DNA of 40,314 nucleotides from a virus (taxonomy: Duplodnaviria > Heunggongvirae > Uroviricota > Caudoviricetes), in the IMG/VR virus record IMGVR_UViG_2563366990_000017, positions 1 to 40,314 of that record; one strand, given 5' to 3'. How positions within the stretch are numbered: position 1 is the first letter of the stretch; every line of letters starts with the position of its first letter. Made by a program: the position numbers and the translations under genes. Below are positions 1 through 40,314 of this stretch, one piece after another. The notes under the pieces were generated by a model. The model was given only the letters and a program-made list of their open reading frames with translations, made no database searches and was not told the DNA's origin.

Positions 1-1158
1 ATGCTCACCGTTAAGCAGATTGAAGCAGCAAAGCCGAAAGAAAAACCATATCGCCTTCTCGATGGTAATGGCCTGTACCTTTATGTCCCTGTGTCAGGGA
101 AAAAGGTATGGCAGCTTCGCTACAAGATTGACGGTAAGGAGAAAATCCTGACTGTCGGAAAATATCCGCTTATGACTTTGCAGGAAGCAAGGGATAAGGC
201 ATGGACCGCAAGAAAAGACATCTCGGTTGGCATCGATCCGGTAAAGGCGAAAAAGGCTTCGTCTAACAACAATTCCTTTAGCGCCATTTACAAGGAATGG
301 TACGAGCACAAGAAGCAAGTCTGGTCTGTAGGGTATGCGACTGAACTTGCAAAAATGTTTGATGACGACATTTTACCTATCATCGGCGGCCTTGAAATTC
401 AGGATATTGAGCCGATGCAACTGCTGGAAGTAATCCGCAGATTTGAAGATCGCGGTGCAATGGAGCGAGCCAACAAAGCACGAAGAAGATGCGGCGAGGT
501 TTTCCGTTACGCTATTGTCACCGGAAGGGCTAAATATAACCCGGCACCTGACCTTGCTGACGCCATGAAGGGATACCGCAAGAAGAACTTCCCGTTTCTT
601 CCTGCAGACCAGATCCCGGCATTTAACAAAGCACTGGCAACATTTTCAGGAAGTATCGTATCGCTCATTGCGACCAAAGTTTTACGCTACACAGCCCTCA
701 GAACAAAAGAGCTTCGTTCCATGCTATGGAAGAACGTCGATTTTGAAAACAGGATTATCACCATCGACGCCAATGTGATGAAGGGACGCAAGATTCATGT
801 GGTTCCGATGTCGGACCAGGTGGTTGAACTTCTCACTACGCTAAGCTCCATCACTAAACCAGTATCAGAGTTTGTTTTTGCCGGACGCAACGATAAGAAA
901 AAGCCAATCTGCGAGAACGCGGTGCTACTTGTGATCAAACAAATCGGCTATGAAGGTCTGGAAAGCGGTCACGGATTCAGGCATGAATTCAGCACGATTA
1001 TGAACGAGCACGAATGGCCTGCTGATGCTATTGAAGTGCAACTGGCACATGCCAACGGCGGATCTGTGCGCGGGATTTACAACCATGCACAGTATCTCGA
1101 TAAGCGCAGAGAAATGATGCAATGGTGGGCGGACTGGATTGATGAAAAGGTGGAGTGA
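1..1158 (+). CDS. int: Tyrosine integrase, P4/IntS-like
   Basis: 385-aa ORF with ATG at 1 and TGA at 1156-1158. N-terminus MLTVKQIEAAKPKEKPYRLLDGNGLYLYV is typical of P4-family integrases; C-terminal half has the R..HxxR..Y catalytic pattern (HGFRHEF, RGIYNHAQY). Identity is from recalled similarity. Confidence 0.9.
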   Translation: MLTVKQIEAAKPKEKPYRLLDGNGLYLYVPVSGKKVWQLRYKIDGKEKILTVGKYPLMTLQEARDKAWTARKDISVGIDPVKAKKASSNNNSFSAIYKEWYEHKKQVWSVGYATELAKMFDDDILPIIGGLEIQDIEPMQLLEVIRRFEDRGAMERANKARRRCGEVFRYAIVTGRAKYNPAPDLADAMKGYRKKNFPFLPADQIPAFNKALATFSGSIVSLIATKVLRYTALRTKELRSMLWKNVDFENRIITIDANVMKGRKIHVVPMSDQVVELLTTLSSITKPVSEFVFAGRNDKKKPICENAVLLVIKQIGYEGLESGHGFRHEFSTIMNEHEWPADAIEVQLAHANGGSVRGIYNHAQYLDKRREMMQWWADWIDEKVE

Positions 1159-22989: not shown

Positions 22990-23065
22990 TGGTGCTGGTT
23001 AACGGACTTGAACCGCTACCCATTCGCTTACAAGGCGACTGCTCTACCATTGGAGCTAAACCAGC
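22990..23065 (-). tRNA. tRNA, anticodon UGU (Thr) by manual folding
   Basis: 76 nt on the minus strand: acceptor GCTGGTT/AACCAGC, D-stem GCTC/GAGC, anticodon loop CTTGTAA, T-arm AGCGG-TTCAAGT-CCGTT, discriminator A, CCA. One mismatch at the first anticodon-stem pair. Not verified computationally. Confidence 0.5.
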
Positions 23066-23070
23066 ATATT

Positions 23071-23145
23071 TGGCGGGACAGCATGGGCTCGAACCACGAT
23101 AAGAAGGTTAACAGCCTTCCGTAATGACCTTTATACGACTTACCC
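23071..23145 (-). tRNA. tRNA-like sequence, anticodon GUU (Asn), possibly a pseudo-tRNA
   Basis: 75 nt on the minus strand: perfect anticodon stem GAAGG/CCTTC with loop CTGTTAA, T-arm CGTGG-TTCGAGC-CCATG, 3' CCA. Acceptor stem has 2 mismatches and the D-stem is weak. Confidence 0.35.
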
Positions 23146-37325: not shown

Positions 37326-37602
37326 CCTGCAACTGGCAGTTAACGGTGAATATTTCGACCAGATGAAGTCAGGCGAGAAAACGGAAGAGTATCGCCTGTG
37401 TAATGACTACTGGAATAAGCGCCTCGTTAACCGTAAGTATGACCGCCTGATTATCACAAAGGGATATCCGAAGCGCGACGATTCCAGCCGCAGAATTGAC
37501 GTCCCGTATGACGGATATGAAATCAAGACAATCACACATCCGCACTTCGGCGATAAACCGGTAAAGGTGTTCGCGATAAAGGTGAATATCGGCAATGAAT
37601 AA
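37318..37602 (+). CDS. Hypothetical protein (94 aa)
   Basis: GTG start at 37318, 8 nt after AGGAGG. Overlaps the upstream stop. Confidence 0.5.
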   Translation: MANLQLAVNGEYFDQMKSGEKTEEYRLCNDYWNKRLVNRKYDRLIITKGYPKRDDSSRRIDVPYDGYEIKTITHPHFGDKPVKVFAIKVNIGNE

Positions 37603-37674
37603 CAATCCTCGCATTCGCGGGGATTTCTTTTATCTGAACTCGCTACGGCGAGTTTTGTTTTATGGAGATGATAA

Positions 37675-37842
37675 ATGCACTTCCGAGTCACAGGAGAATG
37701 GAATGGAGAGCCATTCAACAGAGTTATCGAAGCAGAGAACATCAACGACTGCTATGACCACTGGATGCTATGGGCACAGATAGCACATGCAGACGTAACC
37801 AATATTCGAATTGAAGAACTGAAAGAACACCAAGCCGCCTGA
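37675..37842 (+). CDS. Small hypothetical protein (55 aa)
   Basis: Not in the ORF track. ATG at 37675 with a GGAG RBS 6 nt upstream; stop lies inside the following terminator. Preferred over the overlapping track ORF 37595-37783. Confidence 0.35.
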   Translation: MHFRVTGEWNGEPFNRVIEAENINDCYDHWMLWAQIAHADVTNIRIEELKEHQAA

Positions 37843-37856
37843 TGGCGGTTTTTTAT
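37834..37856 (+). terminator. Rho-independent terminator
   Basis: gccgcc-tgat-ggcgg hairpin followed by ttttttatt. Confidence 0.55.
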
Positions 37857-37868
37857 TGGAGACAAGAA

Positions 37869-38213
37869 ATGTCAGATTTGGCTATGAAGGTTTTGAAATG
37901 GCAATCGACTGGCGATGTCGGCATCAGTAGCGCAACTCTTGCCTCAATCGCATGTGGACTGAAAAAGAATATCTATGGTCATAGCTTCGGTGCTCCACAT
38001 GACGCAGCCGATTTCAGACGATGCGTTGCACTTGTTGAGCAGATTCCAGAAATCAGAGATTCATTCGACAAGGTTGCAAAGCGCGTTCCGGCATTCAAAG
38101 GAATCCTCAACGAATGGGATTCACTCGTTGCTCTGTTGAAGTCTGAAATGAAGACGTACGGGAACAAAGCACCAGAGACTTACAGAAGAATCAGCGAGCT
38201 ACGCAAGGACTAA
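37869..38213 (+). CDS. Hypothetical protein (114 aa)
   Basis: Start set to ATG at 37869 (MSDLAMKVLKW...) with a GGAG RBS. Followed by a weak hairpin terminator at about 38217-38243. Confidence 0.5.
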   Translation: MSDLAMKVLKWQSTGDVGISSATLASIACGLKKNIYGHSFGAPHDAADFRRCVALVEQIPEIRDSFDKVAKRVPAFKGILNEWDSLVALLKSEMKTYGNKAPETYRRISELRKD

Positions 38214-38301
38214 CCCGCCTCACACTCGATGAGGCATTTTCATTTATCAAGATATCCAGACCTACCATCGCCGCATCAATACGGTTTTTTTATTACCTGA
38301 T

Positions 38302-38317
38302 TTGCAGGTTCGATTCC
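38302..38317 (+). other. tRNA T-arm-like fragment just upstream of the excisionase gene
   Basis: ttgcaggttcgattcc reads as a T-stem/T-loop (GCAGG-TTCGATT-CC) with no upstream D or anticodon arm. Joined to 38611-38625 it would form a continuous tRNA 3' half. Confidence 0.45.
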
Positions 38318-38336
38318 ATATTCGGAGATAGCACTC

Positions 38337-38537
38337 ATGCAACACGAACTACAACCTGATTCACTGGTTGATTTGAAATTCATCATGGCTGATACTGGCT
38401 TTGGTAAAACCTTCATCTATGACCGGATTAAGTCCGGCGACCTGCCAAAAGCCAAAGTTATCCACGGGCGAGCAAGATGGTTATATCGTGACCATTGTGA
38501 ATTCAAAAATAAGCTCTTAAGCCGCGCCAATGGGTAA
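38337..38537 (+). CDS. xis: AlpA-family excisionase / DNA-binding protein
   Basis: 66 aa, LVDLKFIMADTGFGKTFIYDRIKSGDLPKAKVIHGRARWLYRDHCEF fits the AlpA/Xis winged-helix pattern. Last gene of the plus-strand early operon at the prophage end. Confidence 0.7.
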   Translation: MQHELQPDSLVDLKFIMADTGFGKTFIYDRIKSGDLPKAKVIHGRARWLYRDHCEFKNKLLSRANG

Positions 38538-38610
38538 AATAGCGGGTAAAATATTTCTCACATCTAAAAAACACCATTCCAATCAATCCCCTGTCGCTTC
38601 AAGTAGATGT

Positions 38611-38625
38611 CTGCAGGGGACACCA
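38611..38625 (+). other. Putative attR core: tRNA 3' end (acceptor stem plus CCA)
   Basis: ctgcaggggacacca reads as T-stem 3' strand, acceptor strand AGGGGAC, discriminator A and CCA. From memory this matches the 3' end of E. coli tRNA-Arg argW, the usual target of IntS-type integrases. Confidence 0.5.
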
Positions 38626-39066
38626 GATACCCTTCAAACCAAATCTACCTTCACCCCGTAAAAGATGGGTTTGGCAGCACACTTGCCCTATATCTACTCA
38701 TTTTTACTGCAACAGGTTGAAATCTCAGCACTGTCAGAAAGCGCTGATGACTAAACAGCCCTGGGCCGGGCGATGTAACCATCATACAGAATCCTGATAG
38801 CGAAATATGGCGTGACTCGATACTTCACTCTGCAATGCATTCCTTGATGAATTCGCAGGCCCGTGATACACGGGACACGTCGCTGAATGACGACAATGTC
38901 CTGGAAATCAGCGAACCGCGTATCCGGAGTACATTTGAGCGACTGTACCAGAACATGAATGAGGCGTTTGGATTAGGTGATTATTAGCAGGGGTAAGCAT
39001 TTTTGTATTATTATTTTCCGGTTGAGGGATATGGAGATATCGACAACAACCGGAAAAAGTTTACGT

Positions 39067-40314
39067 CTATATTGCTGAAGGTACAGGCGTTTCCATAACT
39101 ATTTGCTCGCGTTTTTTACTCAGGAAGAAAATGCCAAATAGCAACATCAGGCAGACAATACCCGAAATTGCGAAGAAAACTGTCTGGTAGCCTGCGTGGT
39201 CAAAGAGTATCCCAGTCGGCGTTGAAAGCAGCACAATCCCAAGCGAACTGGCAATTTGAAAACCAATCAGAAAGATCGTCGACGACAGGCGCTTATCAAA
39301 GTTTGCCACGCTGTATTTGAAGACGGATATGACACAAAGTGGAACCTCAATGGCATGTAACAGCTTCACTAATGAAATAATCCAGGGGTTAACGAACAGC
39401 GCGCAGGAAAGGATACGCAACGCCATAATCACAACACCGATAAGTAATGCATTTTTTGGCCCTACCCGATTCACAAAGAAAGGAATAATCGCCATGCACA
39501 GCGCTTCGAGTACCACCTGGAATGAGTTGAGATAACCATACAGGCGCGTTCCTACATCGTGTGATTCGAATAAACCTGCATAAAAGACAGGAAAGAGTTG
39601 TTGATCAAAAATGTTATAGAAAGACCACGTCCCCACAATAAATATGACAAAAACCCAGAAGTTTCGATCCTTGAAAACTGCGATAAAATCCTCTTTTTTT
39701 ACCCCTCCCGCATCCGCCGCTATGCACTGGTGATCCTTATCTTTAAAACGCATGTTGATCATCATAAATACAGCGCCAAATAGCGAGACCAACCAGAAGT
39801 TGATATGGGGACTGATACTAAAAAATATACCAGCAAAGAACGCGCCAATAGCATAGCCAAAAGATCCCCAGGCGCGCGCTGTTCCATATTCGAAATGAAA
39901 ATTTCGCGCCATTTTTTCGGTGAAGCTGTCAAGCAAACCGCATCCCGCCAGATACCCCAGGCCAAAAAAGAGCGCCCCCAGAATTAGACCTACAGAAAAA
40001 TTGCTTTGCAGTAACGGTTCATAAACGTAAATCATAAACGGTCCGGTCAAGACCAGAATGAAACTCATACACCAGATGAGCGGTTTCTTCAGACCGAGTT
40101 TATCCTGAACGATGCCGTAGAACATCATAAATAGAATGCTGGTAAACTGGTTGACCGAATAAAGTGTACCTAATTCCGTCCCTGTTAATCCTAGATGTCC
40201 TTTCAGCCAAATAGCGTATAACGACCACCACAGCGACCAGGAAATAAAAAAGAGAAATGAGTAACTGGATGCAAAACGATAGTACGCATTTCTGAATGGA
40301 ATATTCAGTGCCAT
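39067..40314 (-). CDS. cscB: Sucrose permease, LacY-family MFS oligosaccharide:H+ symporter (bacterial flank)
   Basis: 415 aa with 12 predicted TM helices and LacY-like motifs. From memory resembles CscB, whose locus lies next to argW in csc-positive E. coli. Start codon at the window edge (40312-40314). Confidence 0.75.
   Translation of the reverse strand: MALNIPFRNAYYRFASSYSFLFFISWSLWWSLYAIWLKGHLGLTGTELGTLYSVNQFTSILFMMFYGIVQDKLGLKKPLIWCMSFILVLTGPFMIYVYEPLLQSNFSVGLILGALFFGLGYLAGCGLLDSFTEKMARNFHFEYGTARAWGSFGYAIGAFFAGIFFSISPHINFWLVSLFGAVFMMINMRFKDKDHQCIAADAGGVKKEDFIAVFKDRNFWVFVIFIVGTWSFYNIFDQQLFPVFYAGLFESHDVGTRLYGYLNSFQVVLEALCMAIIPFFVNRVGPKNALLIGVVIMALRILSCALFVNPWIISLVKLLHAIEVPLCVISVFKYSVANFDKRLSSTIFLIGFQIASSLGIVLLSTPTGILFDHAGYQTVFFAISGIVCLMLLFGIFFLSKKREQIVMETPVPSAI

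Follow-up and report, generated by a model that had tools for sequence, protein, structure and literature searches.

Near the right end of a prophage, two short stretches of DNA resembling parts of a tRNA 3' half lie 293 bp apart with an excisionase gene between them. An earlier note, made from the letters of this DNA, took them for the abutting pieces of one continuous tRNA 3' half. We wondered whether they are indeed a single attachment site broken by an insertion, or separate copies of the same tRNA sequence. The window referred to below is the whole stretch of DNA that was analysed, all 40,314 nt of IMG/VR virus record IMGVR_UViG_2563366990_000017.

The two fragments and the recombination module

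Fragment 1 (38302-38317, ttgcaggttcgattcc) and fragment 2 (38611-38625, ctgcaggggacacca) are both present in the window sequence at the positions where they had been reported. Each occurs once in the 40.3-kb window, and dinucleotide shuffles give an expectation of 0.01 (fragment 1) and 0.04 (fragment 2) chance matches with up to two mismatches per window. The proposal that they derive from argW also holds: a homologous lysogen, E. coli SCZE5, has argW 161 nt upstream of intS; the last letters of this gene are AATTGCAGGTTCGATTCCTGCAGGGGACACCA, and alignment to it places fragment 1 at argW nt 46-61/62 and fragment 2 at nt 62-75, in register and with one C common to both. Together, the fragments make up the last 30 nt of E. 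coli argW. The 293 bp separating them contain a 66-aa ORF and two GGGTAAAATA repeats. ARAGORN detects no tRNA at the fragments, and 38150-38750 has no Rfam match; the only tRNA genes that ARAGORN finds in the window are the adjacent tRNA-Thr(TGT) and tRNA-Asn(GTT) genes carried by the prophage on the minus strand (22990-23145).

The ORF between the fragments, described earlier as an AlpA-like excisionase gene, is a torI/hkaC-type RDF (excisionase) gene (38337-38537, plus strand). Its 66-aa product aligns to PDB 1Z4H (Tor inhibition protein) over residues 1-66 (E 7e-43) and is 100% identical to HkaC of HK620 and gp18 of Sf6, and the same gene carries the torI annotation in thousands of E. coli genomes. 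The integrase gene (1-1158, plus strand) is of the IntS type (P4 family), as had been recognised: its product contains Arm-DNA-bind_3, Phage_int_M and Phage_integrase domains (Pfam, E 1e-25 to 1e-39) and is 97-99% identical to IntS and to the integrases of CUS-3, HK633, Kapi1 and IME10. Window position 1 is the int ATG, and argW, attL and the P' arm lie upstream, beyond the window. The int and RDF genes stand at opposite prophage ends, as the gene order xis-attP-int implies, and they are contiguous in the HK620 and Sf6 records. Window 38282-38625 shows 96-98% identity to the attP P arm of HK620, Sf6, Kapi1 and others. The locus is the IntS-TorI recombination module of KplE1, HK620, Sf6 and Kapi1.

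At the 3' end of the RDF gene, where a direct repeat had been noticed, there are two copies of GGGTAAAAT(A), at 38532-38541 and 38544-38553. These direct GGGTAAAATA repeats (38532-38553, plus strand) are presumed to be the IntS arm-type sites of the P arm, following the repeat annotation of the HK620 attP, and published IntS arm-type sites carry a TAAA motif (PMC2951348). In phiEt88 and Emek the arm repeat becomes GCGGGCATA, and the P' repeats shift along with it. The module has been dissected experimentally in KplE1, for which IntS arm-type sites, five TorI sites and in vitro excision are published (PMC2951348; the module also in PMC3509656) and in which int has its own promoter within the P' arm (PMC2951348). 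Int- and RDF-dependent excision at the core has been published for KplE1, HK620 and Kapi1 (PMC2951348, PMC8787464).

Fragment 2 is the attR core and the right end of the prophage. In strain GPEC1042, which has an unoccupied argW-csc locus, argW is followed by GATACCCTTCAAACC..., identical to the window from 38626 on, and alignment with the empty attB and with the homologous attL identifies the window left of 38611 as phage DNA. The core is identical to the argW 3' end and is present both at attL of the homologous lysogen and at attR of the window. Its identity block in this prophage is the 15-bp CTGCAGGGGACACCA (38611-38625, plus strand), compared with a published core of 16 nt (CTGCAGGGGACACCAT) for KplE1 (PMC2951348) and a 17-bp att for Kapi1 (PMC8787464). 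Strand exchange occurs inside this 15-bp block, as established by the empty-site comparison and by the published experiments on the same module. The earlier note was therefore right to place the recombination core and the right boundary here, and its estimate of about 440 bp to cscB was close: cscB (39067-40314, minus strand) ends at 39067, 442 bp past the core. The match to the empty site shows that 38626-40314 is host chromosome, comprising the argW-downstream spacer, a DUF4942 gene fragment and cscB. Core, module and boundary are all already known, and this finding only places a known prophage boundary, because core, integrase and RDF belong to a textbook-level, experimentally dissected module.

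Compared with KplE1 (CPS-53), HK620, Sf6, CUS-3 and Kapi1, the window shares the integrase (97-99% identity), the RDF (100%), the layout, the core, the GGGTAAAAT arm repeats and the box discussed below (PMC2951348, PMC3509656, PMC8787464). It differs in its host flank, which is the csc sucrose locus rather than dsdC and gives a 15-bp rather than a 16-17-bp identity, in the last box position, which is A rather than C, and in an extra gene (~37870-38213) between the usual terminator and the box. In HK620 the terminator/junction string ...GCCGCCTGATGGCGGTTTTTTATTG stands directly before the box. In the window, this GCCGCCTGATGGCGGTTTTTTATTG string (37832-37858) is followed by the extra gene, and a second junction, TTTTTTTATTACCTGATT (38284-38300), precedes the box; the extra gene looks like a cassette inserted at a terminator-type mosaic boundary. 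The segment 38200-38290 matches HK022, HK97, 434 and Stx1a phages, and not HK620.

Two small ORFs lie around the boundary. The stretch from attR to cscB contains a 50-aa ORF (38835-38987), which matching genomes annotate as a fragment of a DUF4942 domain protein; since the empty site has it too, it is an older island remnant between argW and csc. A 43-aa ORF (38530-38661), the positional homologue of HK620 hkaB and Sf6 gene 17, extends over the arm repeats, through the core and on into host DNA, so its C-terminus changes on integration; it is probably not a real gene.

Displaced tRNA 3' fragments occur at island ends, an example being pawZ at the KplE1 attR. Fragment 2 fits this description exactly, as a copy of the argW 3' end that has been displaced or duplicated. 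Fragment 1, in contrast, is phage-borne, internal to the prophage and not made by the integration event.

A conserved T-arm box in the RDF leader

Comparison of RDF leaders shows that fragment 1 represents, in E. coli, a distinct box of 13-14 nt that selection maintains, CAGGTTCGATTCC(C). In the window this conserved T-arm box, which forms the core of fragment 1, reads CAGGTTCGATTCC(a) (38305-38318, plus strand) and includes a TorI pentamer, GTTCG, at 38308-38312. The Shine-Dalgarno sequence of the RDF gene, GGAG (38324-38327, plus strand; conserved as GGAG(A) at a fixed spacing), begins 6 nt past fragment 1 and 5 nt past the 14-nt box. The box equals the T-arm portion of argW, that is, the attB arm adjoining the crossover.

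Loci were chosen by their RDF protein and not by the box, from 20 species-representative genomes, phage genomes and 80 viral contigs. The pattern GTTCGATTCC, with at most one error, is present in 43 of 55 dereplicated RDF leaders. The end of the box lies 18-19 nt before the ATG in almost all box-bearing leaders and usually ~5 nt before the ribosome-binding site, with 3-6 nt between box and Shine-Dalgarno in most lineages. An alignment of 19 leaders, four of which had originally been found via the box itself, has an information content of 1.5-2.0 bits per position over CAGGTTCGATTCC(C) and of 0.2-0.6 bits on both flanks, including the 5-6 nt from the box to the Shine-Dalgarno. Scanning with the box pattern (non-G preceding) returned 123 matches: 20 in tRNA genes, 20 before TorI-like ORFs of several lineages, and 83 unclassified matches in viral contigs, mostly without a common context.

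The box is invariant in HK620, Sf6, Kapi1 and K-12 KplE1, and it stands between unrelated flanks in modules of the Erwinia, Salmonella, Serratia, Pantoea, Edwardsiella, Citrobacter and Klebsiella types. Tandem copies are found in L187, where the second is degenerate (AGGTTCGGTTCCC), and in Erwinia phage Midgardsormr38 (L087 1008-1036), where two copies of AGGTTCGATTCCC lie 16 nt apart before the RDF gene. Constraint from a coding role is excluded: the distance from box to ATG varies (16, 18, 19 or 25 nt), and there is no in-frame start upstream of the RDF ATG. Beyond the 13 nt, the leaders match argW in register no better than by chance, except for TT at -5/-6 and GGA.A (the Shine-Dalgarno); by this measure the ancestral piece was about one T-arm long, with selection holding only its centre. 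With the box aligned to the T-loop, the Shine-Dalgarno GGAGA (38324-38328) is in register with argW GGGGACA, and three positions match in 69-88% of lineages, which may be fortuitous or may point to a longer ancestor derived from the tRNA.

The box is also frequently missing: from the isolated phages Chronis and EhrS_49, from elements of Dryocola, Tatumella, Rouxiella, Arsenophonus, Xenorhabdus, Proteus and Erwinia tracheiphila, and from six of six phiEt88-type modules found as RDF relatives. Box-less lineages, including Chronis, EhrS_49 and the six phiEt88-type modules, keep the RDF gene, the arm repeats and the core intact. With so many lineages lacking it, any role of the box must be non-essential. 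Within a Klebsiella/Citrobacter clade, one extra nucleotide is fixed in the box (GATTTCC); point mutations of the box occur in rare E. coli contigs.

Two further observations concern the form of the box and its leader. In Edwardsiella and Pantoea stewartii (L101, L103, L102 ~1165-1190) it amounts to a full T-arm-like hairpin, gACAGGTTCGATTCCCTGTc, made of a 5-bp stem closed by an 8-nt loop, and the first stem pair is A-T compared with G-C in argW; in L249 the loop is mutated and the stem kept. The RDF leader at 38295-38310 (ACCTGATTTGCAGGTT) forms a weak direct repeat with xis codons 7-12 (38354-38369, ACCTGATTCACTGGTT). The idea that the box arose as a duplicate of the 5' coding part of xis was considered and rejected, as this similarity (ACCTGATT..GGTT.GATT, P ~0.01) is confined to E. 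coli-type modules and absent from nine other lineages.

We found no description of the T-arm box in the literature on the module; a mention is possible in Panis 2007, Panis 2010, Menouni 2013, Clark 2001, Casjens 2004 and Williams 2002. On present comparisons it is apparently an undescribed, sharply conserved cis element before torI, and as such a modest, testable addition to a well-studied system.

Candidate binding partners of the box

With a slight lean in its favour, we read this attR end of a prophage with an IntS/TorI module as carrying, in the 13-14 nt box, what is probably a dispensable operator-like site for TorI and/or IntS. TorI and/or the core-binding part of IntS would bind the box in the RDF leader; binding would tune RDF expression from read-through transcripts, and the tuned RDF output would in turn affect the direction of recombination. 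Just upstream of the box there is an intrinsic terminator, and no sigma-70 promoter is predicted in 37600-38800; the box would therefore be transcribed only by read-through.

Published TorI sites have the sequences GTTCG, GATCG and GTCCG, TorI and IntS both repress PintS at attL, and PtorI is called uncharacterised in the KplE1 literature (PMC2951348). The box contains the TorI pentamer GTTCG and resembles TorI site I4 (GGTTCG). A second TorI-like pentamer (ATTCG, GTCCG, GTTCG, GATCG or GTACG) follows 12 nt later, abutting the Shine-Dalgarno, in E. coli, Edwardsiella, P. stewartii, L213 and L237. IntS is a candidate as well: the arm beside the crossover in attB is exactly the box, and the attP arm keeps its centre, TTCGAT. 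IntS has to contact the arm flanking the crossover, and the box reproduces this natural target in argW. The box is conserved at the level of primary sequence, and by eye it fits no IHF, LexA or nut-type consensus. Every TorI-type module found targets tRNA-Arg(CCU), and distant P4-family integrases (Stenotrophomonas S1, VarioGold, Klebsiella Kp4865-2, ST101-KPC2phi6.3) are without the xis-attP-int layout.

Several observations weigh against a simple form of this operator reading. A single GTTCG is a weak site for the cooperatively binding TorI, and the clade with a 1-nt box insertion and the frequent loss of the box count against it too. In phiEt88 the box is kept despite P'-arm repeats that are GTWAC-like and not GTTCG-like, which argues against a pure RDF operator, and the free variation of attP's own left arm between lineages argues against strict sequence requirements of IntS.

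Dual-purpose RDFs such as 186 Apl, P2 Cox, P4 Vis and TorI at PintS offer a parallel, being small winged-helix proteins that also regulate transcription. They recognise short direct repeats spaced by roughly one turn of the helix and act as promoter repressors (PMC7498355). The box, likewise, contains a TorI pentamer. It differs in that the leader has one canonical pentamer, with a second, TorI-like one only in some lineages, and its TorI site is putative.

A more specific version, which we entertain only tentatively and would not bet on, is that the box is a functional T-arm-side mimic of attB in the RDF leader, by which IntS and/or TorI gauge their own abundance and so determine RDF output. 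If true, it would add an unrecognised regulatory layer, or a pseudo-core decoy, to a paradigm integration module. More generally, binding of TorI or IntS to the box would explain RDF restraint in P22-like and lambdoid phages that have xis and int on opposite sides of attP, and would overturn an annotation, the 'cII-dependent pI promoter', in the reference records of HK620 and Sf6.

The T-loop of argW itself contains GTTCG. In a homologous attL (L006 365-600, outside the window), the five published TorI pentamers of the P' arm lie at offsets of 31, 51, 94, 104 and 114 from it and are tightly phased (resultant length 0.96 at 10.5 bp per turn). The T-loop GTTCG is within ~1 bp of this phase and could serve TorI as a sixth site in phase with the others, on the side of attL that is bacterial DNA.

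Alternative readings of fragment 1

Among the alternatives, an RNA-level element fares best, and it still seems unlikely. The box would then act within the RDF mRNA leader, as a T-arm mimic or as an anti-Shine-Dalgarno partner (UUCC/GGAG) controlling translation or stability, which agrees with the nearly fixed spacing between box and Shine-Dalgarno (3-6 nt in most lineages), with a box that would be transcribed by read-through only, downstream of an intrinsic terminator and with no predicted promoter, and with the full T-arm-like hairpin of Edwardsiella, P. stewartii, Serratia and L213. However, folding z-scores are ~0, no better than those of shuffles, the Shine-Dalgarno pairing partner differs from lineage to lineage, and in most lineages the 3' stem strand is missing, with no compensatory changes seen. 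A 4-bp UUCC/GGAG helix would also leave the conservation of CAGGTTCGA unexplained, and the region 38150-38750 matches no Rfam family.

The reading with which we began, a split attachment site, is quite improbable. It holds that a cassette with xis and the P arm entered an unbroken argW 3' half between ...GATTCC and TGCAGG..., leaving fragment 1 as a functionless scar. In its favour, the abutment in E. coli-type modules is exact and in register, and T-loop-class att sites with long identity blocks exist; the TT at -5/-6, retained in about half of the lineages, and the Shine-Dalgarno GGA.A in register with tRNA GGGGACA are both compatible with a longer tRNA-derived ancestor. The earlier note had also proposed a comparison of attP regions with Sf6/HK620 relatives, and in this comparison both fragments are found in the free-phage attP of HK620, Sf6 and Kapi1, and so are not a scar peculiar to this lysogen.

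The DNA beside the core argues against a split. The attP of most relatives carries a degenerate T-loop of its own, TTCGATgtaTGCAGG, immediately beside the core: the DNA abutting it on the left is nnTTCGATGTATGCAGG, compared with GGTTCGATTCCTGCAGG in the tRNA, with TTCGAT in T-loop register. Exact carriers of nnTTCGATGTATGCAGG are Midgardsormr38, phiEt88, Serratia, Citrobacter, Pantoea, Rouxiella and a Klebsiella-like MAG, and near-matches stand beside the core in Dryocola, Tatumella, Xenorhabdus and Edwardsiella. The left arm of the E. coli-type attP is more degenerate (GTAGATGTC). In the window the arm is GTAGATGT (38603-38610, plus strand), which abuts the core in register with tRNA GTTCGATT (relatives, TTCGATGTA); we presume this T-loop remnant to be the left core-type arm of attP. 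With TTCGAT in register, the core region by itself already amounts to an unbroken, though decayed, tRNA 3' half.

The upstream copy, for its part, extends beyond the supposed break. It runs into CCTG or CCCTG in Serratia, Pantoea BAV, L213 and Edwardsiella/P. stewartii, so that the box overlaps the CTG of the core in several lineages; the T-arm copies therefore overlap and are two copies, not two halves. The TTGC that brings the match in E. coli to 16 nt is unconserved, being TTAC, TTCC, TTTC or unrelated sequence in relatives and TTAC even within E. coli-type modules (L182, L217). Thus, of the continuous tRNA 3' half described in the earlier note, the in-register match to argW stands and the division into two halves does not, and insertion of the xis cassette into the tRNA 3' half is contradicted by the second T-loop beside the core and by the overlapping copies.

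Nor does the interval look like an insert. The identity block CTGCAGGGGACACCA is not directly repeated around the 293-bp segment; fragment 1 lacks it and is therefore no crossover site. Within 38250-38700 the only repeats are the two copies of GGGTAAAATA and the weak leader/coding repeat. No mobility gene (integrase or transposase) lies between the fragments, only the 66-aa RDF gene. With neither a duplicated identity block nor a mobility gene in the 293 bp, the earlier suggestion of a nested or tandem integration remnant fails as well. No unsplit argW 3' half was seen among the phage records sampled with an argW query, a non-exhaustive sample. A neutral scar, finally, would not keep 13 nt invariant while the adjoining 5-6 nt randomise, and would not be tandemly duplicated. 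Abutting tRNA-like fragments should accordingly not be read as a split att site without comparing relatives.

Sublocation classes of tRNA att sites were reportedly distinguished by Williams in 2002. T-loop-class sites of P4-family integrases resemble the window in that attP carries T-arm sequence of the target and the integrase is of the same broad family (bioRxiv 10.1101/2020.11.02.365908). In the window, by contrast, the crossover falls within the block on the 3' acceptor side, the T-loop beside the core is degenerate, and the well-preserved T-arm copy is ~290 bp away, before the RDF gene and without an identity block.

The GenBank records of HK620 and Sf6 imply a further alternative, which we consider very improbable: that this is a cII-activated 'integration' promoter pI, with TTGC repeats flanking the -35. 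The HK620 record has a promoter and cII site at L001 1510-1548, equivalent to window 38291-38329, where its sequence reads TTGC-N5-TTGC, and the Sf6 record annotates a homologous pI. The annotators thereby proposed an analogue of the lambda PI promoter, which lies inside xis and supplies Int without Xis during lysogenisation. Lambda cII sites have TTGC repeats at N6 spacing. Here the spacing is N5, the first repeat is TTAC in the window and in K-12 (window TTAC-N5-TTGC), and across lineages the second TTGC is replaced by TTAC, TTCC or TTTC or is missing altogether; neither TTGC-N6-TTGC nor a -10 hexamer is conserved (0.2-0.6 bits between box and Shine-Dalgarno). Conservation sits in the T-loop box and not in the TTGC repeats, no sigma-70 site is predicted in 37600-38800, the module also occurs in phages with unrelated regulators, and its int promoter is in the P' arm.

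Chance likeness of fragment 1 to a generic tRNA T-loop, for which one could cite that GGTTCGANTCC is a common motif and that most of the 83 unclassified 14-mer matches in viral contigs are without common context, is effectively refuted by the shuffle expectation (0.01 per window for an exact 16-nt match to the very tRNA that serves as attB), by the 43 of 55 leaders with the box at the same position relative to the RDF gene in many lineages, and by the block of high information content.

Two other observations touch on argW and on the integrase end of the prophage. Stx2a-converting phages at argW (LC616039, LC616044, LC645447) duplicate the 5' part of the tRNA (nt 1-42/43 or 1-69), and therefore a different integrase class uses another sublocation of argW. 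Just downstream of int, a short ORF (1311-1502) beginning MLKLFAKYTSIGVLNTLLHW... presumably resembles a truncated GtrA-type O-antigen modification gene.
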